Assembly: GCA_902522015.1 (NCBI GenBank)
Contig: CABYTX010000003.1
Coordinates: forward strand, 1 to 57,646
DNA from: an uncultured Alphaproteobacteria bacterium
Lineage (GTDB): Bacteria; Pseudomonadota; Alphaproteobacteria; HIMB59; GCA-002718135
DNA: 57,646 bases
Direction: 5' to 3'
The position numbers were made by a program, and so were the translations under genes. The first letter of the stretch is position 1; each line of letters starts with the position of its first letter. Positions 1 through 22,150 of this stretch are shown here, piece after piece. The notes below the pieces were generated by a model. The model was not told where the DNA came from and did not search any database. It saw only the letters and a list, made by a program, of their open reading frames with translations.

Positions 1-1
1 A

Positions 2-1438
2 AAACTATTTGCTGGAGAATTTAATATTCCTGATCCACTAAAACCATTACCAACAACTGGTGGTAATATGCGATGGATTGATAGTGGTGACATGAAAGGT
101 GTCTTTTGGAAAAAATTATTTCCAGAATATGCAGCTTCAAGAGGTATCACTATTGAATATGATGGTTTGCCATGGAAAGAAATAAATAAAATTGTTCCAA
201 TTGCTATAAGAAATGGAACTGTTCATGATGTATTCCAATTACCGATAGGAATGGATCCGGGTGTTGCAGTATCTGAAGGTTGGGTGCAACCATGGGATGA
301 CTACATTGAAAACATCGACGAATGGTTAGGTGCGTTTCCTAGTGGTGTTTATCTTCCTGGTGTCAACCAATTCAATGGAAAGACCTATGGAACATGTTTA
401 ACAGCAAATAAGAGAACGGGAACGTGTCTTCTCTATAGTGAAAAATATATGAGTGAGGCTGGTTATGATCCTCAAGCTGGTCGTATGACATATTCTGAAA
501 TCAGAGATGCTGCTAAAAAAATTACTAAAAATGGTAATGGTCAGTATTATGGTTGGATCATTGGTGGAAACCAAGTTAATCGATGGGAAGATGTTGTCCA
601 TACATTTGGACAAGTAGGTGGAGCACATAGTGGAAGAGGTGGTTTTACAAATAGACATATTAACTTCCAAAATGGTAAATTCCAAATTGCATCTGATCAA
701 TACATGGAAGCAGTTGAATTACTTCTTCAATTAAAATCAGATGGAAGCGCTTTCCCAGGAGTTATGAGTATGAATGCTCCTCAAGCTAGAGCTTTGATGC
801 CACAAGGTGCAGCAGGAATGATATTCCAAGGTCCTTGGTGTATTGGAGTTTGGGGAAGAGATGCTCCAGATTGGAAATATGGTATTGCAAGTGAACCAGT
901 TCCAGATGGAAAAGAAGCACAACCACTTTACATTGCAGAAGGTGGATCAAATACTTTTTGGTTAAGTGCTAATAGTACAATGGGACCATTTGCTGGTGAC
1001 CTGATTAGATTTATGGGAACTGAGCAAGGTCAAATTTACTGGGCTCAGACTGTTGGTGCCGCAGATCCAGCTGTTAATCCAGATGCAGTTGCTAAAGCTG
1101 GTTTAACCGGACCATCAGCACAAGCTTTAGCTATGTTTGCTGAAAACATACTTGTTGGACCTAATCCAATTGTAAGAAATAAAGATGTTGGTATTGTAGC
1201 TGCAAAGTCTAGAGTACCAGATCCTTCTTTGGCTCTAGTTATTCAAGGGTTGTATACTGGACAACTTAAAGGTGTGGAAGCACAGCTTAAAGATTGTAAT
1301 CAAAGGTATGAAGATGCTCTTGATAAAGCTGTTGAAGAGGCAAGAGCAGACGGTGCTAATGTAACTCGTGATGATTGGGTCTTCCCTAATTGGGATGTAT
1401 ACTCAAATTACGGTGCTGAAAAGTATCAAGAACTTTAA
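2..1438 (+). CDS. ABC transporter extracellular solute-binding protein, family 1 (CUT1 sugar type), 5' partial
   Basis: The frame is open from the window edge through the ATG at 68. No signal peptide follows M68, so the N-terminus lies upstream. The W/G/P-rich SBP-like sequence is followed by two MalF/MalG-type permease genes. Confidence 0.85.
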   Translation, partial: KLFAGEFNIPDPLKPLPTTGGNMRWIDSGDMKGVFWKKLFPEYAASRGITIEYDGLPWKEINKIVPIAIRNGTVHDVFQLPIGMDPGVAVSEGWVQPWDDYIENIDEWLGAFPSGVYLPGVNQFNGKTYGTCLTANKRTGTCLLYSEKYMSEAGYDPQAGRMTYSEIRDAAKKITKNGNGQYYGWIIGGNQVNRWEDVVHTFGQVGGAHSGRGGFTNRHINFQNGKFQIASDQYMEAVELLLQLKSDGSAFPGVMSMNAPQARALMPQGAAGMIFQGPWCIGVWGRDAPDWKYGIASEPVPDGKEAQPLYIAEGGSNTFWLSANSTMGPFAGDLIRFMGTEQGQIYWAQTVGAADPAVNPDAVAKAGLTGPSAQALAMFAENILVGPNPIVRNKDVGIVAAKSRVPDPSLALVIQGLYTGQLKGVEAQLKDCNQRYEDALDKAVEEARADGANVTRDDWVFPNWDVYSNYGAEKYQEL

Positions 1439-1450
1439 ACAAAATATCTA

Positions 1451-1480
1451 AAGGCGAATTTTTTAAATTCGCCTTTTTTT
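1451..1480 (+). terminator. Stem-loop with T-tail between the SBP gene and the first permease gene (intra-operon attenuator or terminator)
   Basis: AAGGCGAATTT/AAATTCGCCTT forms a perfect 11-bp stem with a 3-nt loop and is followed by a T7 run. The permease ATG at 1484 comes 3 nt after the T-run. Confidence 0.7.
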
Positions 1481-1483
1481 ACT

Positions 1484-2398
1484 ATGCACAAAAAACCTCT
1501 ATCTAAACAAATATATGATGCAAGATGGTGTTACTTATTTGTTTTACCATGCTCAATTCTTACAGGAATGTTTGTCATTTATCCTATTGGAATGTCTTGG
1601 TATTTTTCTTTATTAGATTGGAGTGGTTTTACAAAAGAAGCAAAATTCATTGGCCTTCAAAATTATTATGAAGCTGTTAATGATGAATTCTTTTGGGATG
1701 CATTCATTCGTTCTTTTATTTTTATGTTTGGAACAGTTCCAGTAAAAATTGTTTTAGGATTTATAATTGCAGTATTTTTAAATAATCAAGTTTTGAAACT
1801 TGCTCCTTTCTTTCGTACTGTAATCTTTATGCCTGTAGTTACTGCAATTGCTATCATTGGTATTGTAATGACTTTTGTATTTAGCCCTTTTAATGGACCT
1901 GCTAATAAATTTTTAATGTCTACTAATTTAACTTCTGCTCCAATTGATTTTCTTGGAAACCCAGATACGGTGCTTCCAACTGTAATGGGAGTGTATGTTT
2001 GGAAATGGCTAGGGATAACTATGATGTATTGGCTTGCTGCTTTACAAACAGTCCCACAAGATGTTTACGATGCCGCAAAAATTGATGGTGCTGAAGGATA
2101 TAGATTATGGATCCATATTATTCTACCTATTGTACTACCTTTTGCTATTGTCATTATTCTTGTTGAGGCAGTTGGAGCGCTAAATGTTTTTCCTTTAATT
2201 GAAACTATGACTGCTGGAGGACCATTCTTTAGTAGTGAAGTTATGGAAATATATATTTTTAGAACAGCTTTTGTAACTGATTCTGGAACAATGCCTAGGC
2301 TTGGATATGCTTGTGCTGCAGGAGTATTTTGGGGTGTTGCTGTTTTATTTATTACAGTTCTTCAGGGATTATGGATGAGGAGAACTCGAAGAATATGA
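1484..2398 (+). CDS. ABC sugar transporter permease (MalF/UgpA-like)
   Basis: Multi-TM protein with an EAA-type loop (DAAKIDGAEGYRLWIHIILP) and operon context. Confidence 0.9.
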   Translation: MHKKPLSKQIYDARWCYLFVLPCSILTGMFVIYPIGMSWYFSLLDWSGFTKEAKFIGLQNYYEAVNDEFFWDAFIRSFIFMFGTVPVKIVLGFIIAVFLNNQVLKLAPFFRTVIFMPVVTAIAIIGIVMTFVFSPFNGPANKFLMSTNLTSAPIDFLGNPDTVLPTVMGVYVWKWLGITMMYWLAALQTVPQDVYDAAKIDGAEGYRLWIHIILPIVLPFAIVIILVEAVGALNVFPLIETMTAGGPFFSSEVMEIYIFRTAFVTDSGTMPRLGYACAAGVFWGVAVLFITVLQGLWMRRTRRI

Positions 2399-3246
2399 GT
2401 AGATACTTAAATTTTATTGCTGAAAAAAACCAAGTTAAATATTTAATTATAACTATAGCTTTTATTATTTTCTCTTTCTTTTGGATCTATCCATTACTGT
2501 GGGTACTTTCAGCCTCTTTCAAAACAGATTTTGAAATTTGGGGAGGCTTAGGTTTAATCCCTGACCGGCTTGTTTGGGAAAATTTTGAAAGAGCATGGTT
2601 TGGTGCAAACATGGGTAGGTATTTTTTTAATACCCTTATTATTACAGTTGTTTCTGTAATTATAGTTGTCGTAACAACTGGTATGTTTGGTTATGTAATT
2701 GGAAGATATTCTTTTCCAGGAAAAAAAATACTTATTGGAATTTTAATTAGTACAATTTTTATTCCTCAAGGTTACACAATTATTCCTGTTTTTGATTTAT
2801 TAAATAATTTAAATATTTCTAAAAACTTAATTGGACTAACACTCGCAACGGCAGGACACACCCCTGTAATTTATATTTTATTATTTGCAGGATATTTTTC
2901 AAGAGTTCCTGTGGAGCTTGAAGAAGCAGCTAAAATGGATGGAGCGGGCTTTGTTCGAACATTTATTTCAATCATGTTACCTTTAACCAAACCAGTAGTA
3001 GCTACAGTTTCTATTCTACAAGTTTTACATGCATGGAATGACTTTTTATTACCAGTCGTTATCACTCTAGGTAATCCTGATATACGAACACTATCCGTAG
3101 GTGTGTACGCTTTTAAAGGCGAATACTTTGTCGATTGGTCTGGTATGGCAGCTGCATCTGTTATAACTATTTTGCCTATAATTATATTGTTTTTGTTTAT
3201 GCAAAAATATTTCGTTGAAGGTGTTCAAGGAGCTGTAAAAGGGTAA
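2395..3246 (+). CDS. ABC sugar transporter permease (MalG/UgpE-like)
   Basis: The ATGA overlap with the upstream stop places the start at 2395 (MSRYLNF...). EAA loop EEAAKMDGAGFVRTFISIMLP is present. The ORF-track start at 2311 would overlap the previous gene by 88 nt. Confidence 0.88.
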   Translation: MSRYLNFIAEKNQVKYLIITIAFIIFSFFWIYPLLWVLSASFKTDFEIWGGLGLIPDRLVWENFERAWFGANMGRYFFNTLIITVVSVIIVVVTTGMFGYVIGRYSFPGKKILIGILISTIFIPQGYTIIPVFDLLNNLNISKNLIGLTLATAGHTPVIYILLFAGYFSRVPVELEEAAKMDGAGFVRTFISIMLPLTKPVVATVSILQVLHAWNDFLLPVVITLGNPDIRTLSVGVYAFKGEYFVDWSGMAAASVITILPIIILFLFMQKYFVEGVQGAVKG

Positions 3247-3248
3247 AG

Positions 3249-4790
3249 ATGAAAAGACCAAATATTTTATTAATAACTTCCGATCAACAGCATCACGATA
3301 CCATTGGAAAATTTAATTCAAAAATACAAACACCGTATTTAGATAAGCTTTGTAATGAAGGAATGAATTTTACAAGAGCTTATTGTCCATCACCAGTTTG
3401 CACACCATCAAGAGCAAGTATTATTACTGGACAATATCCGTCTTCTCATGGAGCTTGGACAATTGGTGTTAAATTAGATGAAGAAGTAGAAACTATTGGA
3501 GAACTTTTATACAAAAATGGTTACTCTACTGGTTTAATTGGTAAAGCGCATTTCCAGCCATTAACTTCAGTTCCAGGTCAGGAATCTATAGAAGGACAAC
3601 CAACTTTAAGAGATTTAGAATTTTGGAAAAATTTTAAAGGACCTTGGTATGGCTTTGAACATATTGAGCTAGCACGTAATCATGCAGATGAAAGTCATGT
3701 AGGTCAACATTATGCAATTTGGATGGAACAAAACGGTCTTAGTGATTGGAAAGAATATTTTCAACCAGTGCCTGGTGAAACTTCTAAATATGCTCCTCCA
3801 ATTGCTCGTGAATATGACTACTGGGCAAGACCGGATAGGGTTTGGAAGTTAGACGAAAAACATCATTACACAAATTGGACAGCCGAAAGATCAATTGAAT
3901 TTTTAGATCAACAAAAAGATGACAAGCCATTTTTTCTTTGGACAAGCTTTCAGGATCCACATCCACCATATGTATTAAGTGAACCATGGGCATCAATGTA
4001 TAATCCAGAAGACATGTCACCTGGAACTTTAAAAGAAGGTGAACACGAATTAAATCCACCACATTTTGGCAAAACACAAACGACAAATCCTGATTTCGAG
4101 AATTGGCATTCACCATTTAACGCTCATGGTTGCATGAGTCATCTGTATCCTATGGAAGAATTAAAAAAAGACATGGCAATTTATTATGGCATGGTTAGTT
4201 TTATGGATAATAATATTGGAAAAATTATTAATAAGTTAGATCAAATGGGTGAACTTGATAATACCATAATTATTTTTACTACTGATCATGGTCACTTTAT
4301 AGGACAGCATGGTTTAATTGCTAAAGGACCTTTCCACTATGAAGATATGCTCCGTTTACCTTTTATTGTTAGATGGCCAGATAAAGTTCCTCAAAATTCA
4401 TCATCTTCATCTTTATTGAGTTTAGTTGATCTTGCGCCAACATTTTTAAAAGTCGCGGGCATTGATATACCAACCCAAATGCAAGGAGTGGATCAAACGG
4501 ATGTATTTTATGGCAACAAGGACAGTATCCGTTCACATATATTTGTTGAAAACAGACATAATCCAAGAATGCCACATTTAAAAACTTACATAAATAATAA
4601 TTATAAAATTTCTATTTACCGAGAAGCTAACTACGGTGAACTTTTTGATTTAGAAAATGATCCAAACGAATATAATAATTTATGGGATAATACAAACGCA
4701 CAAACATTAAAAAAAGATTTATTATTTAAGTTTGCGCAAGCCACATTAAAAGATGAAACATCAAAAATGAAAAGAGTTTCAGGCGCTTAA
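3249..4790 (+). CDS. Sulfatase (Cys-type, formylglycine-dependent family S1), no signal peptide
   Basis: N-terminus is MKRPNILLITSDQQ. FGly motif is CTPSRASIITG, and TTDHG is also present. There is no hydrophobic leader. Confidence 0.92.
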   Translation: MKRPNILLITSDQQHHDTIGKFNSKIQTPYLDKLCNEGMNFTRAYCPSPVCTPSRASIITGQYPSSHGAWTIGVKLDEEVETIGELLYKNGYSTGLIGKAHFQPLTSVPGQESIEGQPTLRDLEFWKNFKGPWYGFEHIELARNHADESHVGQHYAIWMEQNGLSDWKEYFQPVPGETSKYAPPIAREYDYWARPDRVWKLDEKHHYTNWTAERSIEFLDQQKDDKPFFLWTSFQDPHPPYVLSEPWASMYNPEDMSPGTLKEGEHELNPPHFGKTQTTNPDFENWHSPFNAHGCMSHLYPMEELKKDMAIYYGMVSFMDNNIGKIINKLDQMGELDNTIIIFTTDHGHFIGQHGLIAKGPFHYEDMLRLPFIVRWPDKVPQNSSSSSLLSLVDLAPTFLKVAGIDIPTQMQGVDQTDVFYGNKDSIRSHIFVENRHNPRMPHLKTYINNNYKISIYREANYGELFDLENDPNEYNNLWDNTNAQTLKKDLLFKFAQATLKDETSKMKRVSGA

Positions 4791-4806
4791 TTAAGAAAGG
4801 ATAAAG

Positions 4807-6306
4807 ATGAGAATTTTATACGTAGACATAGACTCTTTAAGACCTGATCATTTAGGATGTTATGGTTATCATAGAAACACATCTCCTACGATTGACTCAA
4901 TAGCAAAAGAAGGGGTCAAGTTTACAAATTTTTATTCAACTGACACACCGTGCCTACCTAGTAGAACTGCTTTGTTTGGAGGTAATTTTGGTTTCAAAAC
5001 TGGAGTTGTCAATCATGGCGGCGAATTCTCTGATATTGCTCCTAGAAAAAATATTTGGAATAGAGAATTTAAAGGGGGTTTAAGAGGAGAATATGCTTTT
5101 ACATCTCTTGGAAAAGTTCTTCGAGATGCAGGATATTATACAGCAAGTATCAGTCCTTTCCCTGAAAGACATACAGCTTATCAAGTTTGGTTTGGTTTTA
5201 CCGAAACGTATGACACTGGAAAAGGTGGTTTAGAAAATGCTGATGAAGTCTATCCTGTTATAAAAAAGTGGTTAGAAAATAATGGAGAAAAAGAAAATTG
5301 GTTCTTACATGTAAATATGTGGGATCCTCATACTCCGTATGATACGCCTGAAGACTTTGGAAATCCTTTTAAAGATGATCCTATCGAAGAATGGGTGACA
5401 GAAGAATTAATTCAAAAACAAAGGAATAGTTTCGGACCGCATAGCGCTAGAGAAGTTCCAGGATTTGATGAAGATCTTCGAGGAAAGTATACAATGGGAG
5501 TAGGCGAAATTAAAAATACTTCTGATGCTAAAGAACAAATTGATGCATATGATACTGGAATTAAGTACGCTGATTTTTATTTAAATAAAGTTTTTGAAGA
5601 CTTAAAAAAAATGAACCTTTGGGATGATACAGCAATAATTATTTCAGCAGACCACGGAGAAAATCAAGGCGAGTTAAATGTATGGGGAGATCACCAAACA
5701 GCTGATCATATAACTAATAGAGTCCCATTAATAATTAGATGGCCGGGGATAACAGATACAAATACAGGAAGTACTGTAGAAAATAAATTTTATAATTTAG
5801 ATTTAACTTCAACTATTTCTCAAATTACTTCATCTTCACAACCTGATAGATGGGATGGTATTAATTTCACTGAAAATTTAACTAATAGTAAATCATCAAA
5901 TGGAAGGGATTATTTAGTTATTAGTCATGGTGCTTGGAGTTGTCAAAGATCAGTAAGATGGGATAATTGGTTACTGATAAGAACGTACGACACTGGTTTA
6001 AAAGATTTTCCAAAATATATGCTTTTTGATATTGAAAAGGATCCTCATGAGTTGAATAACCTAGCAGATCAGCATAAAGATCTCGTAGCACATGGAATGT
6101 TTTTAATCGATGAGTGGATTGAAGAAAATATGTATGAGGCTGATAGAGGAGATCCACTTCAAGGTGTAATTAGAGAAGGCGGTCCTCATCATGCAAATAT
6201 TTATTCAAAAGTCTGGAATACATATGTTGAGCGTCTTGAAAAAACAGATAGAAAAAAACACGCTGACAATCTTAGGAAATATAAAGGAAAACCTTTTAGT
6301 AAATAA
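4807..6306 (+). CDS. Sulfatase (Cys-type), no signal peptide
   Basis: N-terminus is MRILYVDIDSLRPDHLG. FGly motif is CLPSRTALFGG, and SADHGE is also present. Confidence 0.9.
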   Translation: MRILYVDIDSLRPDHLGCYGYHRNTSPTIDSIAKEGVKFTNFYSTDTPCLPSRTALFGGNFGFKTGVVNHGGEFSDIAPRKNIWNREFKGGLRGEYAFTSLGKVLRDAGYYTASISPFPERHTAYQVWFGFTETYDTGKGGLENADEVYPVIKKWLENNGEKENWFLHVNMWDPHTPYDTPEDFGNPFKDDPIEEWVTEELIQKQRNSFGPHSAREVPGFDEDLRGKYTMGVGEIKNTSDAKEQIDAYDTGIKYADFYLNKVFEDLKKMNLWDDTAIIISADHGENQGELNVWGDHQTADHITNRVPLIIRWPGITDTNTGSTVENKFYNLDLTSTISQITSSSQPDRWDGINFTENLTNSKSSNGRDYLVISHGAWSCQRSVRWDNWLLIRTYDTGLKDFPKYMLFDIEKDPHELNNLADQHKDLVAHGMFLIDEWIEENMYEADRGDPLQGVIREGGPHHANIYSKVWNTYVERLEKTDRKKHADNLRKYKGKPFSK

Positions 6307-6318
6307 ATCTAAATCATA

Positions 6319-7686
6319 ATGAATATTAAATCTAAACCAAATATTATTGTATTTTTTACTGATCAACAACGTTGGGATACTTCTGGTTTACATGGCAATC
6401 CATTATCCTTGATGGAGAACTTTGATCATTATGCAGTTGAAGGTACACATCTTTATAATTCATTTACATGTCAACCAGTTTGCGGGCCTGCAAGAGCATC
6501 ATTACAATCAGGAATGTATGCAACAAAAACTGGATGTTTTAAAAATAGAATACCTTTAAAAAAAAATATTAAAACTCTTGCAAAATATCTATCAAAAGAA
6601 GGTTATGCCACTGGATATATTGGAAAATGGCATCTCGGCTCTTCTGAACCAGTTAAAAAAGAGGATAGAGGTGGTTATGATTATTGGTTGGGATCAAATC
6701 TATTAGAATTTACTTCTGATGCTTATGAAACATATGTTTATGATGGACAAAATAAAAAAGTATTTCTTCCAGGATATAGAGTTGATGCAATAACTGATGC
6801 AGCTATAAATTTTATAAAACTAAATCAAAAAAAACCATTTTTTCTTTTTGTTTCTCTTATTGAGCCACATCATCAAAATAATTCAGATGATTATCCACCA
6901 CCTATTGGATACAGAGAAAAATATACAGGCAAGTGGTCACCACCAGATCTTTCAACTCTAGTTGGATCTTCTCCTCGCCATTTAGGTGGTTACTATGGAA
7001 TGGTGAAGAGAATAGATGAAGCTTATGGCAGAATGATTGATGTCATCAAAAGTTTAAAATTATTTGATGATAGTGCCATTATTTTTACATCTGATCATGG
7101 AAATAATTTTAAAACACGAAATAGAGAATATAAACGTTCATGTCATGAAAGTTCAATACGAGTTCCTACATCTTTGATTGGAAATGTTTTTCAGCAAGGT
7201 GGACGTATAAAAGAACTTACCAACATTCTAGATATTCATGCAACAATATTAGATTTAGCAAAAGTCAAAAATACTTCTCATTGCGATGGTAGATCAGTAT
7301 TGCCTTTAGTGAATAAAACTTCCAAAAAATGGGATAACGAAATTTTTATCCAAATTAGTGAAAGTCAATTAGCTAGAAGTTTAAGAACTGAAAAATGGAA
7401 ATATTGTATTGCTGATCAAGATTCTAATGGAAGTGACAAACCTTCATCAAATCAATACACAGAAACAAATCTATACGATCTTGATGCTGATCCGTACGAA
7501 TTAAATAACTTAATTGGTATTAGTACTTATGATGAAATAGTAAACTCCTTAAGAAAAAAGATTAAAAGTAAAATTAGAAAAGTTGAAAATATTACAACTA
7601 AAATTACAAAAGCTAAAAATGTAAATAATCCTGGTCAAATGGGATTAAATCCTGATTCTTTTCATAGATTAAAGAAAAAACTTTAA
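6319..7686 (+). CDS. Sulfatase (Cys-type), no signal peptide
   Basis: N-terminus contains PNIIVFFTDQQRWD. FGly motif is CGPARASLQSG. GKWHLG and TSDHG are also present. Confidence 0.92.
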   Translation: MNIKSKPNIIVFFTDQQRWDTSGLHGNPLSLMENFDHYAVEGTHLYNSFTCQPVCGPARASLQSGMYATKTGCFKNRIPLKKNIKTLAKYLSKEGYATGYIGKWHLGSSEPVKKEDRGGYDYWLGSNLLEFTSDAYETYVYDGQNKKVFLPGYRVDAITDAAINFIKLNQKKPFFLFVSLIEPHHQNNSDDYPPPIGYREKYTGKWSPPDLSTLVGSSPRHLGGYYGMVKRIDEAYGRMIDVIKSLKLFDDSAIIFTSDHGNNFKTRNREYKRSCHESSIRVPTSLIGNVFQQGGRIKELTNILDIHATILDLAKVKNTSHCDGRSVLPLVNKTSKKWDNEIFIQISESQLARSLRTEKWKYCIADQDSNGSDKPSSNQYTETNLYDLDADPYELNNLIGISTYDEIVNSLRKKIKSKIRKVENITTKITKAKNVNNPGQMGLNPDSFHRLKKKL

Positions 7687-7716
7687 TAATTTTTTTTTCG
7701 TATTAATCTAATTTTT

Positions 7717-10636: not shown

Positions 10637-10646
10637 ATCTTTTATT

Positions 10647-10680
10647 AATTTCGGCTATTTCTTAATAGCCGAAATTTTTT
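10647..10680 (+). terminator. Stem-loop with T-tail between the SBP gene and the first permease gene
   Basis: AATTTCGGCTATT/AATAGCCGAAATT forms a 13-bp stem with a 4-nt loop and a T-run ending at 10680. The permease ATG is at 10681. Confidence 0.7.
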
Positions 10681-12404: not shown

Positions 12405-12418
12405 TATAGATTTATTTT

Positions 12419-12697: not shown

Positions 12698-12698
12698 T

Positions 12699-13619: not shown

Positions 13620-15124
13620 TTAAAATTTCTTTCATCACCTTTAAATGGAACAACATCACAAGTTTCTTGATACCATGAAAGCATTTTTTCTTTTAAGTGT
13701 TTAAGCTCTGATGCATATTGAGGATCGTCAATAACATTATTAATTTCTCCAGGATCTTCAATTAAATTATAAAGTTCATCTTTTTCGTAAGCTCTTTTTA
13801 TATATTTAAATTTTTTATTTCTGCACATTGTTGCTTTGGTGTGCATTAAAATTTCATCCTCTTTACCTTGTAAGTTTACTCTTGGAAAATATAAGCCATG
13901 GGGTAAATTTAAACTTTGACTTTCACTTGCCTGTCTCTCTAATCTAAGTCTGCCACCTTCAGTAAATACTTCTTCTCTATGATTATCAGTTTTCTGTTCA
14001 ATAAAATTTTTTATACTTTTGCCAAAATGCCAATATGAAGGATCGATATTACTGTAATCATATATAGTTCCAGCGATATCAATTAACTCAATCATTGTAT
14101 CACTTACACCATTTAACGTATTTTCACTTTTTGGCGGCTTAATAATAAGAGGAACATTCGTAAGACAATCTTGAAAAGTATTTTGTGTTTTTTCAACTAA
14201 ATTATAGTCACCTGTAAAGTCACCATGATCAGATAAAAAAATTATTAAAGTATCATCATATAAATTATTATCTTTAAGTTGATTGACCAAAAGTCCAAAT
14301 TGATAATCTACCCTTGCACACATACCAAGATATACCGCTCGTAATTCATTCCAGCGTTCATCAGTCCAATCTTGCATTCTTTGTCCATCCATTATTCCTT
14401 TTAAAAGACTTGGTTTATCCTCCCATGTTTTGTATTGATATCTTTTAGGAATTACATTTCGATCAATTGAAGAGAACCATGGATCCTCGACACAGTAAGG
14501 GGGATGTGGATAGCCAAGTGGTAGAAATAAACAGAATGGTTTTTCTTTTTTATAATCTTTTATAAAATCTAATGCTCCATAAACCATGGACCAATCATCA
14601 TCGAAATAAATATCTTTATCTTTTTTATCTAATTTTCCTTTAAAGAAACTATAATAATTATCTCCATCCTCAGGTCCTCGCCATAATAGATCTCCACCAT
14701 GTGTACCTGGTTGTTGAGAGTAACCCCATTTTTGATAATCGCTATCCGTTGGTTCAAAGTAAATATCACAATGATTACGATATCCTTCTTGACCTGCTAT
14801 CAAATCATTTTTTCCACCCCACCAAATAAAGTAATCTTTATCTTTTAGTTCTGATAAAATACTAGAGTCACCTTGATCTGTATGTAACATATAATGCATT
14901 GTTCTATGACCATGAACATGTGGATACCAACCAGTCATAAATGAACACCGACTTGGTGTACAAACTGTTGCTTGGCAAAAAGCATTCTTAAATGCAATTG
15001 CATCTTCTTTAATAATATTATCTAAATTAGGAGTTTGTGCACCAGGATACCCTAGATATCCCAGCATATCTCCTCTCCACTGATCAGGGTTAAAAATAAC
15101 AATATTTGGTTTTTTCTGGTTCAT
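13616..15124 (-). CDS. Sulfatase (Cys-type), no signal peptide
   Basis: N-terminus is MNQKKPNIVIFNPDQW. FGly motif is CTPSRCSFMTG, and LSDHGD is also present. Its stop codon shares the TTAA at 13616-13619 with the convergent dioxygenase gene. Confidence 0.92.
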   Translation of the reverse strand: MNQKKPNIVIFNPDQWRGDMLGYLGYPGAQTPNLDNIIKEDAIAFKNAFCQATVCTPSRCSFMTGWYPHVHGHRTMHYMLHTDQGDSSILSELKDKDYFIWWGGKNDLIAGQEGYRNHCDIYFEPTDSDYQKWGYSQQPGTHGGDLLWRGPEDGDNYYSFFKGKLDKKDKDIYFDDDWSMVYGALDFIKDYKKEKPFCLFLPLGYPHPPYCVEDPWFSSIDRNVIPKRYQYKTWEDKPSLLKGIMDGQRMQDWTDERWNELRAVYLGMCARVDYQFGLLVNQLKDNNLYDDTLIIFLSDHGDFTGDYNLVEKTQNTFQDCLTNVPLIIKPPKSENTLNGVSDTMIELIDIAGTIYDYSNIDPSYWHFGKSIKNFIEQKTDNHREEVFTEGGRLRLERQASESQSLNLPHGLYFPRVNLQGKEDEILMHTKATMCRNKKFKYIKRAYEKDELYNLIEDPGEINNVIDDPQYASELKHLKEKMLSWYQETCDVVPFKGDERNFN

Positions 15125-15141
15125 GTATCCCTAAAATTCAG

Positions 15142-15171: not shown

Positions 15172-15204
15172 AACAATAATATTAACAAATTTCTGGGAGG
15201 AAAA

Positions 15205-16455
15205 ATGAGATTAATAAAATTATTTTTAAGTGTCATTTTTTTGTTAGGAATATCATTTAATGCCAATGCAGTAACAATCAAATGGCTTGGATTGGCACAA
15301 GATGACTCTGCGCATAAAGAAGACATTGATGCAGCAATTGCTGATTGGGAAGCAAAAACTGGCCATGAAGTTAAATGGCAGTATATGGCTGGTCCAGACT
15401 TAAAACTGAAATTACCTACAATGTTACAAAGTGACGATGCTCCTCATTTATTTTATAGTTGGGGTGGAGGAGTTATGTTTGATCAAGCAGATGCTGGATT
15501 TTTACAAGACATTTCTGCTATGGTTCCAGATAGTTATTTAGAAAATTTAAGTCCTGCAGCAGCAGACGCTTTTACATACAAAGGTGAAAGAGTTGGTCTT
15601 CCAAATTTATTTAACCAAGTAGTATTTTGGTACAATAAAGATTTAACTGAAAAAGCAGGAGTAGATCCCTCAAAGGTTGTTATGTGGAACGATCTTTTAG
15701 AAGTAGTAAAAGATATAAAAGATGCTGGCATAACACCAATTTGTGTTGGTGGTAAAAATAAATGGCCTATTCATTTCTATTGGACGCTACTCCATGTAAG
15801 AAACGGAGGCAAAGCAGCTTTCTTTGACGCTTTAGAAAATGGTGGATGGGATAGAGAAGAATACATTAAATCTGGATATGAATTCCAACAGCTTGTTGAC
15901 CTTGAACCTTTTCAAGATGGTTTTATGGCAGTTGAATATGGTGATGCTTCAGCAGCATTTGGTAACGGAGAATGCGCACTTCATCTAATGGGAAGTTGGG
16001 ATTACAATGGTGCTAAAAGAAGAAGTACTTCTGGGGAAGGAATTCCTGATGATAGAATGGGAACATTCCAATTTCCAATGACAGAAAATGGAAAAGGAAA
16101 TCCTTCAGATACACTTGGTGGAATTAATGGATGGTTAGTTTCTAAAAATGCACCAAAAGAAGCGGTTGATTTCTTAATGCATTATATTTCAATGAAATAT
16201 CAATCAATGGGAGCAAAAAGTGGAGCGTATATGCCTATTTACAAAGGAGCTGAAACAGAAATGGGTAACAGATTCTTTAAGCAACAGGCGCTTAACGTTG
16301 CAAACTCAACCTTCCATTCTATTTTCTGGGATCAATATCTCGGAAGAGATATTGGTGAGGTTGTAAATGACGTTTCAGTTGAACTAGCAACTAAAGACAT
16401 CACTCCAGAAGAAGCTTGTCAAAGAGTACAAGAGGCTTGGGAGTTTAATCAATAA
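15205..16455 (+). CDS. ABC transporter solute-binding protein, family 1 (CUT1), with signal peptide
   Basis: SD GGGAGG lies upstream. Leader is MRLIKLFLSVIFLLGISFNANA. SBP-like sequence is followed by two permease genes. Confidence 0.9.
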   Translation: MRLIKLFLSVIFLLGISFNANAVTIKWLGLAQDDSAHKEDIDAAIADWEAKTGHEVKWQYMAGPDLKLKLPTMLQSDDAPHLFYSWGGGVMFDQADAGFLQDISAMVPDSYLENLSPAAADAFTYKGERVGLPNLFNQVVFWYNKDLTEKAGVDPSKVVMWNDLLEVVKDIKDAGITPICVGGKNKWPIHFYWTLLHVRNGGKAAFFDALENGGWDREEYIKSGYEFQQLVDLEPFQDGFMAVEYGDASAAFGNGECALHLMGSWDYNGAKRRSTSGEGIPDDRMGTFQFPMTENGKGNPSDTLGGINGWLVSKNAPKEAVDFLMHYISMKYQSMGAKSGAYMPIYKGAETEMGNRFFKQQALNVANSTFHSIFWDQYLGRDIGEVVNDVSVELATKDITPEEACQRVQEAWEFNQ

Positions 16456-16464
16456 ATATCAAAT

Positions 16465-16490
16465 AGAGGGGCAAATAATTTTGCCCCTCT
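16465..16490 (+). terminator. Stem-loop after the SBP gene (attenuator or mRNA stabiliser)
   Basis: AGAGGGGCAAA/TTTGCCCCTCT forms a perfect 11-bp stem with a 4-nt loop. There is no immediately adjacent T-tail; the nearest T-run is about 12 nt downstream. Confidence 0.55.
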
Positions 16491-16512
16491 GTATAAAAGT
16501 TATTTTTTTTGA

Positions 16513-17409
16513 ATGATAAAGAAAAACATCACATCTGCATTTGTTGAAAAATATTCCACAATAATAATTTTTTTAGTTCCAGCATTAACTTTATTTACTG
16601 TTTTTGTTGTTATGCCAATTTTTGAAGCAGCTTATTTCAGTTTTTATCGATGGAATGGAATGGGAGCACCAGAAAAATATGTTGGATTTAAAAATTACGC
16701 TTTTTTATTTAAGAACGGTATTTTTTTAAATGCTCTTAAAAATAATTTTTGGATTATATTTGTTTCACTTTTTATTCAATTACCTTTTGCATTATTTCTC
16801 GCACTTTTTTTAGCCAATAATTTTAGAGGAGCAGCTGTATTTAGAAGTTTGTTTTTTTTACCATATATTTTAGCAGAAATTGTTGCGAGTTTGATTTGGG
16901 TTTACATTTATAAAGGAGATTATGGATTAGTCGGTGCAATTTGGGGTTTGTTTGGAGCTGACGCACCTTGGATTACTGCAGACAAAGAGTGGGCATTGAC
17001 AGCCATACTAATAGTTGTCGTATGGAAATATTTTGGAATACATATGATGATTATGATTTCAGGTCTTCAAGGAATATCAAAAGAAGTAATAGAGGCTGCA
17101 AAAATTGATGGAGCTGGTCCAATAACCACTGCTTTAAGAATAAAAATACCAATTTTATGGCCAACAATTACTTTATCTATTTTCCTTTCTACACTTGGAA
17201 GTTTACAACTATTTGATTTAATTATGCCTTTAACAATGGGAGGCCCCTCAAATGTTACTCACTCAATGGTTACTTACTTGTATGATTTTGGTGTTGGAAG
17301 AATGAGACTTGGTTTTGGAAGTGCCATTAGTGTGGTAATTTTTATTATTTGTTTTGTTGTTGCTTTAATTTATCAAACAACAATTTTAAAAGATAAAGGA
17401 TATAACTAA
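16513..17409 (+). CDS. ABC sugar transporter permease (MalF-like)
   Basis: Multi-TM protein with EAA loop EAAKIDGAGPITTALRIKIP. Confidence 0.9.
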   Translation: MIKKNITSAFVEKYSTIIIFLVPALTLFTVFVVMPIFEAAYFSFYRWNGMGAPEKYVGFKNYAFLFKNGIFLNALKNNFWIIFVSLFIQLPFALFLALFLANNFRGAAVFRSLFFLPYILAEIVASLIWVYIYKGDYGLVGAIWGLFGADAPWITADKEWALTAILIVVVWKYFGIHMMIMISGLQGISKEVIEAAKIDGAGPITTALRIKIPILWPTITLSIFLSTLGSLQLFDLIMPLTMGGPSNVTHSMVTYLYDFGVGRMRLGFGSAISVVIFIICFVVALIYQTTILKDKGYN

Positions 17410-18233
17410 TGCAATCAAAATTATCAAAATTTTATATGTATCTTTTCTTATCCTTCTTAGCAGGAATAATTTTAGTCCCTTTATACTTAACTTTTATAAG
17501 TAGCTTTAAAACATTAGGTGATTTAAGTTCAAATGTTATTGGATTACCAAGAGAGTGGATTTTTTCAAATTATACAGATGTTTTTGGTATGGAATATTTT
17601 TGGTCATTTGCCTGGAATTCACTTGTATATGGAGTTTTAACGACAGTGTTAACTTTAATTTGTGCATCTATGGCAGCATTTGTATTCGCTCATATTAGAT
17701 TTTTTGGAAATAGATTTTTATTTAATTATTTGTTGATTGGATTAATGTTTCCTTTTGCTTCAGCAATCATTCCTTTATTTCTAAAGGTAAGAGATTTTGG
17801 ATTACTTGGAACTTATTGGGCAGTAGTTTTACCTCAAATTGCTTTTGGTCTTGGATTTGCTATTTTACTTTTTAGAGGTTTTTTCAAACAAATACCGCCG
17901 GAATTATTTGATGCTGCATACGTTGATGGTTGTAATTATTCAAATTTCTTTTTCCGAATAACTATCCCACTATCTGTTCCAATATTTTCTACTGTAGCAG
18001 TTGTAACTTTTGTGACAAGCTGGAATAATTATCTACTTCCATTAATTATGGTTAGCAATGAGGAGTTATACCCCTGGCCTATGGGTATAATGTTTTTTAG
18101 AGGTGAGTATGACACAGATTGGTCAATGGTTCTAACTTACGTTTCTTTAACATTAATACCTGCGATAGTATTTTTTCTCTTAGCTCAAAAATACATCATA
18201 GCTGGACTTACTGGCGGAGCAGTAAAAGAGTAA
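17409..18233 (+). CDS. ABC sugar transporter permease (MalG-like)
   Basis: TAATG coupling to the upstream gene. EAA-like loop DAAYVDGCNYSNFFFRITIP is present. Confidence 0.9.
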   Translation: MQSKLSKFYMYLFLSFLAGIILVPLYLTFISSFKTLGDLSSNVIGLPREWIFSNYTDVFGMEYFWSFAWNSLVYGVLTTVLTLICASMAAFVFAHIRFFGNRFLFNYLLIGLMFPFASAIIPLFLKVRDFGLLGTYWAVVLPQIAFGLGFAILLFRGFFKQIPPELFDAAYVDGCNYSNFFFRITIPLSVPIFSTVAVVTFVTSWNNYLLPLIMVSNEELYPWPMGIMFFRGEYDTDWSMVLTYVSLTLIPAIVFFLLAQKYIIAGLTGGAVKE

Positions 18234-18946
18234 TGCTGAAAGAAAATGAAGTAAAATTCTATAATCAAAATGGTTATTTAATTTTAAAGGATAAATTGGA
18301 CAAGAATACGTTATCAAACTTGAAAAATTCAACGACACAACTGATAGAGGAGTTTAAAAAAAATCAATCGACTTTTATAAGAGATAAAAATAGAAATATA
18401 TCTAAGCATGGTAAAATGTTTTTATCCAATCGTTGTGAAGATTTTCCTTTGATGGAAAAATTCACTAAAGGTAATTTTGTTAAATCTATTTGTAGGTCAA
18501 TTTTAGGTGAAAAAATTTACTTATTTAATGAACAGGTAGTTAATAAGGAGCCACAAACTGAAAGTAAATTTGCTTGGCATCAAGATTCTGGTTATGTAGG
18601 GCATGATCATAAGGCATATCTATCTATTTGGATTGCCTTATGTGACACAAATGAAAATAATGGAGCATTAAGAATATTGCCAATAAATCTAGAAAGAGAA
18701 GCTAAGATTGAAGAACATGTTTGGTCCGAACAATCATCAGATTTAAGTATGAAAGTTCAGGAAGAGAAGTCAATTTCGTGTACAATTGAGGAAGGTGGAT
18801 TAGTCTTATTTTCGAGTAGAACACCTCATGCTTCTTTTCCAAATAAATCAAACAAAAACAGACCTGCATATTTATGTCAGTACTCATCTGAGCCAATTAT
18901 ACCTCCGCCTGGTTCAAATAAAAAATTTAGAGCAGAGTTAATTTAA
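18233..18946 (+). CDS. PhyH-family Fe(II)/2-oxoglutarate dioxygenase
   Basis: Start MLKENEVKFYNQNGYL is at the TAATG overlap with the permease stop. HxD motif is WHQDSGY and the distal His is in RTPHAS. The ORF-track start at 18119 lies inside the permease gene. Confidence 0.75.
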   Translation: MLKENEVKFYNQNGYLILKDKLDKNTLSNLKNSTTQLIEEFKKNQSTFIRDKNRNISKHGKMFLSNRCEDFPLMEKFTKGNFVKSICRSILGEKIYLFNEQVVNKEPQTESKFAWHQDSGYVGHDHKAYLSIWIALCDTNENNGALRILPINLEREAKIEEHVWSEQSSDLSMKVQEEKSISCTIEEGGLVLFSSRTPHASFPNKSNKNRPAYLCQYSSEPIIPPPGSNKKFRAELI

Positions 18947-20088
18947 TGAAAGTTGGAATTATAGGATGTGGAAATATAGCAGATATATATTTTAAAAATT
19001 CTCAAAAATATTTTAATAATTTTGACATCATTGCATGTGCAGATATTAAAGAAGATGCTTCCGTTCATTATTCCAAACTTTATGGAGTGGAAAATTTATC
19101 AGTGGATAAATTATTAAATCATAGTGAAATAGAATTAATTATTAATTTAACAATTCCTGACGTCCACTTTGAAGTTTCGCAATCAATTCTTCAAGCTGGA
19201 AAGCATTCATACTCTGAAAAACCTCTTTCAATTGAATTTAACCACGGAAAGCAATTGTTAGATTTATCGAAAGAGAAAAATTTGTATTTAGGTTGTGCGC
19301 CCGATACATTTCTGGGAGCAGGTATCCAAGAATCAAAGAAAATTTTAGAAAATAACATTATTGGAAATATTAATATGGGTAGTATTGCAATGGGTGTTGC
19401 GGGTCACGAAATATGGCATCCTAATCCAGATTTTTATTATAAGTATGGTGGAGGACCAGTATTGGATATGGGTCCTTACTATTTTACAGCATTAGTCAAT
19501 TTATTAGGTCCAGCAAAATCTGTCTATTCTCAATCTAGAACAGTTTATAAAAAAAGAATTATTGGAAGTGGTAGTAGAAAAGATGAAGAAGTAATTGTAG
19601 AAATTCCAACAACTCTAATTTCTCAAATTGAGTTTGACAATGGCGCGCTTATAGACTCTTTTTTCTCTTTTGATACATGGAAGCATAATAAAAACCATAT
19701 TGAGCTTTATGGAGATAAGGGATCAATAAATATTCCAGATCCTAATACTTTTGGTGGTTCAATAAATATTTGCACATCAAAAAATGGAGAATGGGAAACT
19801 ATAGCAACTGATAAAAATAATTTAGGAAAGATCAATATACATAATAGTAAAAAAACAAATGAAAATCCAGGCATTGCCAATTATAGAGGAATTGGTGTTA
19901 GTGAGATGGTTGATTCTATAAATCACAAAAGATTAAACAGGTGCAGTGGTGAATTAAGTTTACATGTTTTAGATATATTAGATACAATTATTAAATCTTC
20001 TGAAAATGATAAAAAATTACAATTAAGAAGCTCCATCAATAAAGTTAGTTATTTTGCTGAGGATGAAATAAGTAAATTATTAAACTGA
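18946..20088 (+). CDS. Gfo/Idh/MocA family NAD(P)-dependent oxidoreductase (ThuB-like)
   Basis: N-terminal Rossmann motif MKVGIIGCGNIA and an EKP motif (YSEKPL). TAATG coupling to the upstream gene. Confidence 0.85.
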   Translation: MKVGIIGCGNIADIYFKNSQKYFNNFDIIACADIKEDASVHYSKLYGVENLSVDKLLNHSEIELIINLTIPDVHFEVSQSILQAGKHSYSEKPLSIEFNHGKQLLDLSKEKNLYLGCAPDTFLGAGIQESKKILENNIIGNINMGSIAMGVAGHEIWHPNPDFYYKYGGGPVLDMGPYYFTALVNLLGPAKSVYSQSRTVYKKRIIGSGSRKDEEVIVEIPTTLISQIEFDNGALIDSFFSFDTWKHNKNHIELYGDKGSINIPDPNTFGGSINICTSKNGEWETIATDKNNLGKINIHNSKKTNENPGIANYRGIGVSEMVDSINHKRLNRCSGELSLHVLDILDTIIKSSENDKKLQLRSSINKVSYFAEDEISKLLN

Positions 20089-20099
20089 AAGGAATATGA

Positions 20100-20813
20100 A
20101 TGAAAAAAGCTCTTATAGTTTATGGTGGCTGGCCTGGCCATGAGCCAGAGAAATGTACTGAAATAATTAAAGGTATGCTTGAGCCTGAAGGATACGAAGT
20201 TAGAGCTGAATATCAAACTTCAGCATTTGCACAGGATTATGTTCACGAAATGGATTTGTTAATACCCATAGTCACTATGGCTTTTCATTTTGATCCTCGA
20301 GGAGAAATAAAAAAAACTGCTGTTAACAATGTTATAAAAGCCGTTCATAATGGTTGTGGCCTTGCCGGTCACCACGGTGGAATGTGTGATTCATTTAGAC
20401 AGTCAATCGATTGGCAGTTTTTAACAGGAGGTCAATGGGTAAGTCACCCAAATGGTATCCATGATTATAAAGTCAATATAACAAAAAAAGATGATCCAAT
20501 CATGGAAGGTATTGAAGATTTTGATTATCATTCAGAGCAATATTATATGCATGTTGATCCATTAAATGAAGTTTTGGCAACGACAACTTTTAAAGGTAAT
20601 GAAGTTTGGAAGCTTGAACAAGAACCTGGTTCATCAAGTGGTGAGGCATATACCACAGAATGGTTAAAGGGCGTAGAAATGCCAGTTGCTTGGAAAAGAC
20701 GAATTGGGAAAGGTAAAATTTTTTATATCTCTCTTGGTCATTTTGCACATGAATTAAACCATCCACAAATGAATAAAATTTATAAACGTGGTTTACTTTG
20801 GGCATCAAGATAG
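20100..20813 (+). CDS. ThuA-domain protein (trehalose-utilisation-like, GATase1-like fold)
   Basis: N-terminus KKALIVYGGWPGHEPEKCTE is typical of ThuA-domain proteins, and it is adjacent to a Gfo/Idh/MocA gene. Confidence 0.75.
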   Translation: MKKALIVYGGWPGHEPEKCTEIIKGMLEPEGYEVRAEYQTSAFAQDYVHEMDLLIPIVTMAFHFDPRGEIKKTAVNNVIKAVHNGCGLAGHHGGMCDSFRQSIDWQFLTGGQWVSHPNGIHDYKVNITKKDDPIMEGIEDFDYHSEQYYMHVDPLNEVLATTTFKGNEVWKLEQEPGSSSGEAYTTEWLKGVEMPVAWKRRIGKGKIFYISLGHFAHELNHPQMNKIYKRGLLWASR

Positions 20814-20836
20814 AGTAATATTATATAGGAAATCAT

Positions 20837-22150
20837 ATGACAGAATACTTTAGTAAAATACCAGAGATTAAATTTGAAGGCGAAGAAAGTACAAACCCAT
20901 TCGCTTTTAAGTTTTATGATGAATCTAAAAAAGTTTTAGGCAAGTCTATGAAAGAGCATTTAAGGTTTGCTACTTGCTATTGGCATACATTTACTTGGCC
21001 TGGCCTCGATCCATTTGGCGGTCAAACATTTGATAGGCCTTGGATGCAAGCAGGTGATGAAATGAAAATGGCTGAAATGAAACTTGATGCTGCATTTGAT
21101 TTTTTCACTAAAATAAAAACACCTTTTTTCTGCTTTCACGATAGAGATATTTCTCCTGAAGGTTCAAATTATGCTGAGACACAAAAAAATTTTTTTCATA
21201 TTATAGACTTAATGGAACAAAAAATTAATGACTCAGGAATGAAATTACTTTGGGGAACAGCAAATGCTTTTTCTCATAAAAGATATATGAGTGGTGCTTC
21301 TACCAATCCAGACCCAGAAGTTTTTGCATATAAAGCTGCACAAGTAAAAGATTGTATGGATGCAACTATGAGACTGGGTGGTCAAAACTATGTTCTTTGG
21401 GGTGGAAGAGAAGGATACGAAACTATCCTAAATACTGACATGACGAAGGAAACTGCTAATCTTCAAAGATTTTTAGAATTAGTCGTTAATTATAAACACA
21501 AGATAGGATTTAAAGGTCAAATTTTATTGGAACCAAAACCTCATGAACCAACTAAACATCAATATGACTTTGACTCTGCAACTTGTTTAGCGTTTTTACG
21601 AAAGGCAGGTTTAGAAAATGAGATTAAACTAAATGTTGAAGTTAATCATGCAACTTTATCTGGTCATAATTTTGAACATGAAATTGCTTACGCTACTTCA
21701 AACAGCGCCTTAGGAAGTATTGATATTAATAGAGGTGATACTTTGATAGGTTGGGATACTGATCAATTCCCAAATAATCCTGCAGACTTAATTATGTCAT
21801 TTTATTTTATTTTTAAGAATGGCGGCTTAGGCCAAGGAGGCATGAACTTTGATGCAAAAATAAGAAGACAATCTATTGATGCTGAAGATTTATTCTTTGC
21901 TCATATTGGAGGCATGGATGTTTGTGCAAAAACACTTATTGCTGTTGAAAAAATGATGAATGATAATGTTATTCCTAAGTTTATTGAAGACAGATATGAA
22001 GACTGGAATAAAAGTTTGGGGCAGTTTATTCATAATAAAGATACTGGATTAGAAGATATAAATAAAAAAGTAATCGATGACAATATTGAACCAGAACCTC
22101 GTTCAGGAAGACAAGAATATCTGGAAAATATCTTAAATAAATATTTGTAG
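20837..22150 (+). CDS. xylA: Xylose isomerase
   Basis: 437 aa. XylA-like motifs are present, including RFATCYWHTF, FCFHDRD, LEPKPHEPTKHQYDFD, VNHATLSGH and WDTDQFP. Confidence 0.93.
   Translation: MTEYFSKIPEIKFEGEESTNPFAFKFYDESKKVLGKSMKEHLRFATCYWHTFTWPGLDPFGGQTFDRPWMQAGDEMKMAEMKLDAAFDFFTKIKTPFFCFHDRDISPEGSNYAETQKNFFHIIDLMEQKINDSGMKLLWGTANAFSHKRYMSGASTNPDPEVFAYKAAQVKDCMDATMRLGGQNYVLWGGREGYETILNTDMTKETANLQRFLELVVNYKHKIGFKGQILLEPKPHEPTKHQYDFDSATCLAFLRKAGLENEIKLNVEVNHATLSGHNFEHEIAYATSNSALGSIDINRGDTLIGWDTDQFPNNPADLIMSFYFIFKNGGLGQGGMNFDAKIRRQSIDAEDLFFAHIGGMDVCAKTLIAVEKMMNDNVIPKFIEDRYEDWNKSLGQFIHNKDTGLEDINKKVIDDNIEPEPRSGRQEYLENILNKYL

Follow-up and report, generated by a model that had tools for sequence, protein, structure and literature searches.

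A streamlined, flexible genomic island in Candidatus Indicimonas predicted to import sulfated sugars and desulfate them in the cytoplasm

The first 22,150 nucleotides of a 57.6-kb stretch of alphaproteobacterial DNA (contig CABYTX010000003.1; the whole stretch is hereafter the window) encode three sugar-type ATP-binding cassette (ABC) importers and five sulfatases, accompanied by oxygenase, oxidoreductase and isomerase genes. Positions 1–22150 are a flexible genomic island, in which cassettes are gained, lost and swapped independently, and not a recent mobile insertion. The explanation that we favour, and to which we give a somewhat better than even chance, is a streamlined island with which the cell scavenges sulfated oligo- or monosaccharides that may contain fucose; these would be imported first and desulfated in the cytoplasm, with the cassettes independent of one another.

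Sulfatases and importers of the island

The core of the proposed system would be the transporter of solute-binding protein 1 (SBP1) together with sulfatases 1–5. The SBP1 gene (1–1438, plus strand; Pfam SBP_bac_1/8) is cut by the window edge, with about 32 codons, including a twin-arginine translocation (Tat) signal, lying beyond it and the frame open from base 2; the full-length protein, as read in the related contig L002, has 510 amino acids and carries the Tat motif SRRTVMKG. On the same strand follow permeases 1a (1484–2398) and 1b (2371–3246), both with BPD_transp_1 domains; the start of the latter was taken from gene calls on related contigs, and the open reading frame (ORF) is open from 2311. 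Sulfatase 1 (3249–4790, motif CTPSR), predicted to be cytoplasmic and the central enzyme in the conserved cassette described below, heads a series of plus-strand genes that continues with sulfatase 2 (4807–6306, CLPSR), sulfatase 3 (6319–7686, CGPAR) and sulfatase 4 (7717–9219, CMPAR), the last of which occurs as two population alleles. Sulfatase 5 (13616–15124, CTPSR) is encoded on the minus strand.

Scores against the Pfam Sulfatase model (PF00884) range from 99.5 to 187.6 bits for the five proteins, with a gathering cutoff of 25, and both the C-x-P-x-R motif of Cys-type enzymes and the metal-site DHG motif are kept in every one. The Sulfatase domain begins at residue 3–7 in all five, leaving no room for a signal peptide. 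Pairwise identity among the five is 21–30%, which suggests old, distinct subfamilies.

Each of the three importers comprises an SBP_bac_1-type solute-binding protein and two BPD_transp_1 permeases with EAA-loop repeats, and the binding proteins carry Tat (SBP1) or Sec (SBP2, SBP3) signals. An exported binding protein and two permeases are features of carbohydrate uptake transporters of type 1 (CUT1); the third, a MalK/MsiK-type ATPase, was found neither in the window nor in its flanks, where the upstream ATPase is of CUT2 type only (28% identity). An unlinked, shared ATPase is common among CUT1 importers. The binding proteins are mutually 21–24% identical, implying three different ligands, and NCBIfam gives no substrate-level name for any of the three; SBP3 is not assignable to trehalose. 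An earlier note, made by inspection of the sequence, had placed the catalytic steps in the cytoplasm after ABC import, and for the sulfatases this is borne out by their lack of signal peptides, the exported binding proteins and the CUT1-type transporters. With the same three features, an import-then-desulfate arrangement is the most economical reading.

A widespread cassette in streamlined form

Domain scans of the 57.6-kb window returned no glycoside hydrolase (GH) or polysaccharide lyase (PL), no TonB/SusCD component, no transcription factor, no formylglycine-generating enzyme (FGE) or anaerobic sulfatase-maturating enzyme (anSME) and no MalK-type ATPase. A SusC/SusD pair is likewise missing, with neither a TonB-dependent receptor nor a SusD domain in any window ORF. 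For the island of this strain, the absence of glycoside hydrolase, regulator, maturase and TonB/SusCD reported in the earlier note is therefore confirmed by these scans, but its reading of these absences as a distinctive design is not, as comparison with other genomes indicates.

Outside Candidatus Indicimonas, the host lineage discussed below, identity to sulfatase 1 falls abruptly to 58–68%. The order SBP1, permease, permease, sulfatase 1 is nevertheless found, at 45–68% identity, in Trueperaceae, Granulosicoccus, Devosia, Martelella, Roseibium and many Roseobacters. In Oceanicola granulosus HTCC2516 the locus reads GHL6, sulfatase, LysR, binding protein, two permeases, MalK, two sulfatases and FGE; in Devosia it is LysR, binding protein, two permeases, MalK, sulfatase and FGE, and in Granulosicoccus LysR, binding protein, two permeases and sulfatase. 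The Trueperaceae locus has LacI, binding protein, two permeases, GH4 and two sulfatases, with three further sulfatases upstream. By tblastn, at least 10 loci have FGE next to the cassette, about 15 have MalK and about 25 have LysR; neither the window nor any locus of Indicimonas has one of the three. The absence of regulator, ATPase and FGE here is a matter of loss from an ancestral cassette that was fuller. The lack of a glycoside hydrolase is in turn strain-specific, as a GH151-type gene occurs in the island of 3 of 31 informative genomes and in that of contig L096.

Homologues of all five island sulfatases are found in Trueperaceae at 51–68% identity (loci L044 and L091), from which we take the five to be a conserved working set. 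The orthologue of sulfatase 2, 60–62% identical, is there the next gene after sulfatase 1, and those of sulfatases 3 and 5 are 57% and 52% identical; orthologues of sulfatase 4 (48–63%) occur in Roseibium, Ruegeria and Trueperaceae loci. L044/L091 derive from the Trueperaceae metagenome-assembled genome JAGQHN010000013.1, which has a LacI gene, an SBP1-type importer and two GH4 genes besides the five sulfatase homologues, and may be near the donor or an ancestral form of the cassette. The database names of cassette members are all generic, and PhyH, ThuA, Gfo and XylA genes, which accompany the sulfatases in the window, occur in none of about 50 sulfatase 1 loci of other taxa. Judged by gene content and order, the Indicimonas island is a streamlined derivative of a common, functionally uncharacterised cassette. 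By the terms of the earlier note, its claim would fail if the gene order were widespread and already functionally assigned; the order is widespread in other phyla, where it stands without functional assignment.

The island shares with the Roseobacter, Devosia, Martelella, Granulosicoccus and Trueperaceae cassettes the ordered SBP1, both permeases and sulfatase 1, as well as Cys-type sulfatases without signal peptides. It differs from them in having no regulator, MalK, FGE or (in this strain) glycosidase, and in lying at a recombination hotspot together with further sugar cassettes. Polysaccharide utilization loci of Bacteroidota also cluster sulfatases with glycan uptake genes; they employ periplasmic or surface-bound sulfatases, whereas those of the island are predicted to be cytoplasmic, and the island has ABC uptake in place of a SusC/SusD/TonB receptor and no endo-acting GH or PL.

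Borders and variability of the island

In all related contigs SBP1 is preceded, at a distance of 93 nt, by a glyoxalase gene on the minus strand. The window begins about 100 nt inside SBP1, and its first base is about 190 nt from the glyoxalase gene. On the right the core block ribF-ileS-lspA begins at 22193 with ribF (22193–23122, plus strand) as the anchor. Glyoxalase and ribF flank all island variants. A metagenome scan with RibF yielded 11 loci, most of them short, of which two, L113 and L114 from a sister lineage, are decisive: in these the site is empty, with glyoxalase about 120 nt from ribF (identity of 83–84% for glyoxalase, 58% for RibF and about 80% for IleS). The island is thus defined as everything between glyoxalase and ribF.

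There are at least seven island architectures among strains. Content after sulfatase 4 was compared in the 31 informative species representatives. An SBP2 module like that of the window follows in 6, the GHL6 gene with a divergent SBP2 allele (73% identity) in 3, orf92-PhyH_A directly in 20 and sulfatase 5 directly in 2; module 2 is absent in 22 of the 31. Module 1 is missing entirely from L096 and L099, which keep the rest, and orf92-PhyH_A from L008, L012 and L034. SBP3 and its permeases exist as two alleles (100% versus 54–60% identity) or are missing (L012, L034). Contigs L012 and L034 keep the five sulfatases and have neither module 2, orf92-PhyH_A, SBP3 with its permeases nor PhyH_B. Sulfatase 5 and Gfo-ThuA-XylA, by contrast with these, are present in every variant that reaches their positions.

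Synonymous divergence (dS) varies five-fold between adjacent genes of the same genome pair (window 68–9219 against L035, L036 and L037); relative to L035 it amounts to 0.91 for SBP1, 0.17 for sulfatase 1 and 0.97 for sulfatase 4. Such jumps between neighbours indicate recombination, with breakpoints inside module 1. An origin as a mobile element was rejected: there is no tRNA, insertion sequence (IS)-like repeat or integrase domain in the window, and the GC content at third codon positions is 0.19 in the island and 0.17 in the core. The earlier observation that the island adjoins ribF-ileS-lspA with no tRNA, integrase or IS element therefore stands.

In L003, L005, L006 and L010, which are pilon-polished long-read contigs from ENA, several genes of the island are broken up into two or three ORFs. 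These splits look like residual sequencing error and not pseudogenisation, since single-cell genomes hold the same genes intact.

The earlier note had proposed that the twenty genes form one linear pathway for one sulfated substrate, running from import and desulfation through oxidation by PhyH and Gfo to isomerisation by XylA. Nineteen of the twenty genes share a strand, several stop and start codons overlap, and the constancy of sulfatase 5 and Gfo-ThuA-XylA would also suit such a pathway. The comparison of synteny at the ribF junction instead shows modules 1, 2, orf92-PhyH_A and 3 each varying on their own, as in L096, L099, L012 and L034. The absence of PhyH, ThuA, Gfo and XylA from the loci of other taxa, the three ligands implied by the divergence of the binding proteins and the occurrence of orf92-PhyH_A in sugar clusters elsewhere that have no sulfatases also count against it, and we consider a single pathway improbable.

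Candidate substrates

For the substrate, our leading guess is a sulfated glycan fragment that contains fucose. The GHL6 gene found in island variants L001, L011, L014, L018 and L096 encodes a protein of 686 amino acids that aligns over its full length with the alpha-L-fucosidase 6TVK (E 2.5e-111) and is a candidate GH151-type alpha-L-fucosidase. Its closest known counterparts are the GH151 enzymes 6TVK and Mfuc3, and the gene is not in the window strain. Mfuc3, a GHL6 enzyme, was recovered in a screen for fucosidase activity (PMC4723247). The GHL6 neighbour of the O. granulosus cassette is 31% identical. Sulfatase-rich Indicimonas genomes usually hold GH29 and fucose catabolism genes, and a GH29/fucose operon has been reported, with use of polymeric fucoidan judged unlikely (PMC11366302). 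Together, the GHL6/GH151 gene and this GH29/fucose context point to sulfated fucose-containing fragments.

The Protein Data Bank (PDB) neighbours of the sulfatases include S1_30A, S1_11, GlcNAc-6-sulfatase, a mucin-desulfating sulfatase, exo-2S-iota-carrageenan sulfatase (S1_17) and the alphaproteobacterial group of arylsulfatases and phosphonate monoester hydrolases (AS/PMH); those nearest to sulfatase 1 are S1_30A (9ihk) and GlcNAc-6-sulfatase (5g2v). No sulfatase reaches an NCBIfam equivalog cutoff.

Several observations weigh against the favoured interpretation. The structural neighbours are distant (E 1e-22 to 1e-47) and point to several different sugars, the glycosidase partner is GH4 in Trueperaceae and GHL6/GH151 elsewhere, so the glycan may differ, and the window strain has no GH151. 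The literature search found no substrate for any cassette member in any organism. Scans of about 8.5 kb of upstream sequence from related contigs likewise found no FGE, anSME or MalK-type ATPase, and sulfatase activity depends on genes (maturase, ATPase) outside the window and this flank.

Alternatively, the substrate could be a sulfate ester other than a carbohydrate (choline-O-sulfate, or aryl, steroid or alkyl sulfates), with the sugar genes as mere neighbours. The best sub-threshold NCBIfam matches of the sulfatases are indeed arylsulfatase and choline-sulfatase models, and several PDB neighbours are so labelled. These scores are, however, far under the equivalog cutoffs (197 against 433 bits for choline sulfatase), the transporter is of the sugar type (SBP_bac_1 with two BPD_transp_1 permeases), and the cassettes of relatives are paired with GH4 or GHL6/GH151 and with LacI. 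We give this alternative roughly a one-in-ten chance, slightly behind the single pathway.

Some or all of the sulfatases might instead be phosphonate-monoester or phosphodiester hydrolases (PMH/PehA-like) that scavenge phosphorus in phosphorus-poor gyres. Among the best PDB matches of sulfatases 4 and 5 are PMH and alphaproteobacterial AS/PMH entries (4upk, 2w8s, 2vqr, 4uph), PehA recurs among the sub-threshold NCBIfam matches, and flexible islands of HIMB59 track phosphorus (PMC10734472). The PehA model nonetheless scores 98–191 bits against a cutoff of 900, and the cassettes of relatives contain FGE and sugar regulators and no pho-type genes. The published phosphate/phosphonate islands of HIMB59 resemble the present one in belonging to the same order and in having a fixed chromosomal position, alternative versions of related function and no mobile-element genes, but they adjoin pst, whereas this island is located at glyoxalase/ribF, has sugar importers and sulfatases as cargo and is not described in that study (PMC10734472). 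A role in phosphorus acquisition is thus quite unlikely.

Maturation and retention of the sulfatases

With FGE lost from the island, formylglycine would be made by an unlinked system or by one outside the known types. The stronger proposal, that there is no FGE or anSME anywhere in the approximately 1.5-Mb Indicimonas genome and that its 5–8 Cys-type sulfatases are matured by some other system, we consider doubtful, if a little less so than any of the rival readings given here. That the Fe(II)/2-oxoglutarate (2OG) dioxygenases of the island make formylglycine is a long shot, and their genomic contexts elsewhere argue against it. For the pair orf92-PhyH_A in particular, a role as sulfatase maturase was rejected as unlikely, given its three sulfatase-free sugar-cluster contexts and the genomes that keep five sulfatases without the pair.

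The ratio of nonsynonymous to synonymous divergence (dN/dS) is 0.02–0.08 for all five sulfatases at dS of up to about 1 (sulfatase 1, 0.02–0.04; sulfatase 2, 0.02–0.05), which argues that the genes are in use, and about 40 species-level genomes keep both the reading frames and the catalytic motifs intact. By these sequence measures the sulfatases are clearly retained in function, under strong purifying selection. That they are non-functional relics left by the loss of FGE, as might be suggested by the lack of FGE and anSME in the window and the fetched Indicimonas loci and by the FGE beside the cassette in at least ten relatives, is very improbable in view of this conservation, and Escherichia coli can dispense with both FGE and its known anSME homologues when it matures Cys-type sulfatases.

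Neighbouring sugar modules

The gene content and three modules given in the earlier note were reproduced in full by ORF listing and Pfam. All twenty ORFs were confirmed, 19 on the same strand and tightly packed, with domain counts of three SBP_bac_1/8, six BPD_transp_1, five Sulfatase with SGSH_C, two PhyH, one Gfo/Idh/MocA and one ThuA. Module 1 (1–9219) comprises SBP1, two permeases and four sulfatases; module 2 (9341–13619) comprises SBP2, two permeases, orf92 and PhyH_A, with sulfatase 5 convergent; and module 3 (15205–22150) comprises SBP3, two permeases, PhyH_B, the Gfo/Idh/MocA oxidoreductase, the ThuA-domain protein and XylA. The translational coupling that had been proposed is evident at some junctions, with overlaps of 1 nt at 11586, 17409, 18233 and 18946 and gaps of 1–2 nt at 3246/3249 and 12697/12699, but not at the others, where gaps are 11–109 nt. 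A strong hairpin comes after every SBP gene: a 12-bp stem-loop directly 3' of SBP1 (1450–1476, plus strand), which is a putative SBP-permease attenuator, a 13-bp stem-loop after SBP2 (10647–10676, plus strand) and a GC-rich 11-bp stem-loop after SBP3 (16465–16490). The recurrence of the hairpin marks three separate ABC units. A promoter scan was uninformative, with 83 sites against 96.8 expected.

The variable module 2 begins with SBP2 (9341–10636), which has a Sec signal peptide, and continues with permeases 2a (10681–11586) and 2b (11586–12404), orf92 (12419–12697) and PhyH_A (12699–13619), all on the plus strand and, apart from orf92, assigned by Pfam. PhyH_A is a predicted Fe(II)/2OG dioxygenase with an HQD motif, and its best 120 matches are all at least 74% identical and from the same lineage. 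The 92-residue product of orf92 had been called an orphan. It belongs to a conserved family without a Pfam model that numbers 238 clusters at 50% identity, has PhyH_A as a conserved partner, and forms a single polypeptide with a PhyH_A-like dioxygenase in P0294 and in several further proteins. Strong purifying selection acts on the pair (dN/dS 0.02–0.03 for orf92, 0.02–0.08 across the two genes). On this evidence orf92 and PhyH_A are one two-part enzyme, with orf92 as the putative small subunit or domain. Elsewhere the pair follows a LacI-regulated sugar ABC operon or stands beside GMC, Gfo/Idh/MocA, TIM-barrel and enolase-type enzymes. Sulfatase neighbours are missing from the three contexts seen elsewhere, which suggests an oxygenase of carbohydrate clusters and not a sulfatase-specific partner. 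Another match of orf92, P0331, is a protein of 3252 amino acids with 19 repeats of an orf92-like segment.

Module 3 is encoded on the plus strand and starts with SBP3 (15205–16455), which also has a Sec signal peptide, and permeases 3a (16513–17409) and 3b (17409–18233). PhyH_B (18233–18946; 237 amino acids from its ATG) is a second predicted Fe(II)/2OG dioxygenase, with EvdO2 and PhyH as its nearest PDB entries. The Gfo/Idh/MocA oxidoreductase (18946–20088), a candidate sugar 3-dehydrogenase like ThuB or DgpA, counts the glycoside 3-oxidase DgpA among its nearest solved relatives. The ThuA-domain protein (20100–20813; Pfam, 145 bits) has no sequence relative in the PDB, and a search of the ThuA/ThuB literature found no mechanism. 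XylA, a xylose isomerase and the last gene of the island (20837–22150), scores 652.8 bits against TIGR02630 (equivalog cutoff 533.25) and would suit xylose or another aldose.

The operon thuEFGKAB serves trehalose, maltose and sucrose utilisation in Sinorhizobium and Agrobacterium. Module 3 has the domains and order of the thuAB type by Pfam, with the ThuA-domain protein next to the Gfo/Idh/MocA oxidoreductase and a CUT1 binding protein and two permeases ahead of them; it differs in lacking a thuK ATPase and in the additional PhyH dioxygenase and XylA. Together the Gfo, ThuA and CUT1 importer resemble a thu-type 3-keto-sugar route, with the Gfo as a candidate ThuB-like enzyme.

Beyond the glyoxalase gene, positions 716–7901 of L002 encode a Gfo/Idh/MocA protein 46% identical to that of the island, a CUT2 importer whose binding protein weakly matches the rhizopine-binding protein, a third PhyH, an FA_desaturase-family protein and, in some strains only, a Gig2-like 2OG oxygenase. 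We take this cluster to resemble moc-type (O-methyl-inositol/rhizopine) catabolism. Far from the island, window positions 50075–52291 hold an IolE-like TIM barrel of the xylose-isomerase fold (350 amino acids) and another Gfo/Idh/MocA protein (383 amino acids).

Elsewhere in the window are four glutamine riboswitch aptamers (RF01739, 53–64 bits), arranged as tandem pairs at 52398–52521 and 54438–54560. An ammonium transporter (amt) gene begins a short way downstream of each pair (52581–53897 and 54636–55934), and a 124-residue ORF without a Pfam match (53997–54371) is located between the two amt genes, immediately 5' of the second pair.

Host lineage and earlier literature

The earlier note described the host as SAR11-like. 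In a scan using one genome per species of the Genome Taxonomy Database, sulfatase 1 was 96–99% identical in about 40 species-level genomes, all of them GORG single-cell genomes. These belong to o__HIMB59; f__GCA-002718135; g__AG-337-I02, that is, Candidatus Indicimonas of the AEGEAN-169 group (PMC11366302, supplement), and not to Pelagibacterales proper. Permease 1a is found as an identical protein in 1907 assembly blocks, indicating an abundant marine organism.

A count of about five sulfatases per Indicimonas genome was published in 2024, the tables giving none in SAR11 Ia, none in Candidatus Nemonibacter and 1–8 in Indicimonas 'species 4' (PMC11366302). Two dedicated genomics papers on AEGEAN-169/HIMB59 mention neither sulfatases nor xylose. 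Our literature search found no description of the island, no functional study of the cassette and nothing on cytoplasmic sulfatases with ABC transporters; searches for sulfatase and formylglycine in Alphaproteobacteria gave no result, and those for formylglycine and SAR11 nothing on AEGEAN-169. The number of sulfatases was thus known before, and the island, its transporters and the cytoplasmic logic are not described in the literature found. As to the undescribed route suggested in the earlier note, the import-then-desulfate logic is supported, the sulfatase count was already published and the core gene order is widespread.

Discussion

In the scheme that we prefer, import followed by cytoplasmic desulfation, SBP1, exported by the Tat route, would bind its sulfated oligo- or monosaccharide ligand in the periplasm, and two CUT1-type permeases would import the sugar with a MalK/MsiK-type ATPase presumably encoded elsewhere. 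The five divergent Cys-type S1 sulfatases, as their family membership suggests, would then remove sulfate from different positions or sugars in the cytoplasm. Glycosidic bonds may be cut by the GH151-type fucosidase where it is present and elsewhere by GH29 or an oxidative Gfo/ThuA route, and the freed sugars would pass to central metabolism. Module 2, orf92-PhyH_A, module 3 with PhyH_B, and Gfo-ThuA-XylA would be neighbouring sugar modules, the substrate of which need not be the same.

Sulfated glycans make up a large, slowly degraded share of marine dissolved organic carbon, and the organisms commonly held responsible for degrading them are Bacteroidota, Verrucomicrobiota and Planctomycetes, whose sets of secreted enzymes are large. 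AEGEAN-169 can make up several percent of cells where the surface ocean is poorest in nutrients. If our interpretation is true, so small a system, with import ahead of intracellular desulfation, would identify the clade as one that scavenges sulfated fragments which other organisms release. The idea lends itself to direct testing, as all eight proteins concerned, five sulfatases and three binding proteins, are small, soluble and expressible, and the parent cassette in cultured Roseobacters and Devosia offers tractable model organisms. Should Indicimonas indeed have neither FGE nor anSME, the maturation system could be sought within an unusually small set of genes, given how tiny the genome is. 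The swapping of cassettes among strains, finally, constitutes a natural experiment that may tie the version of the island to the environment.

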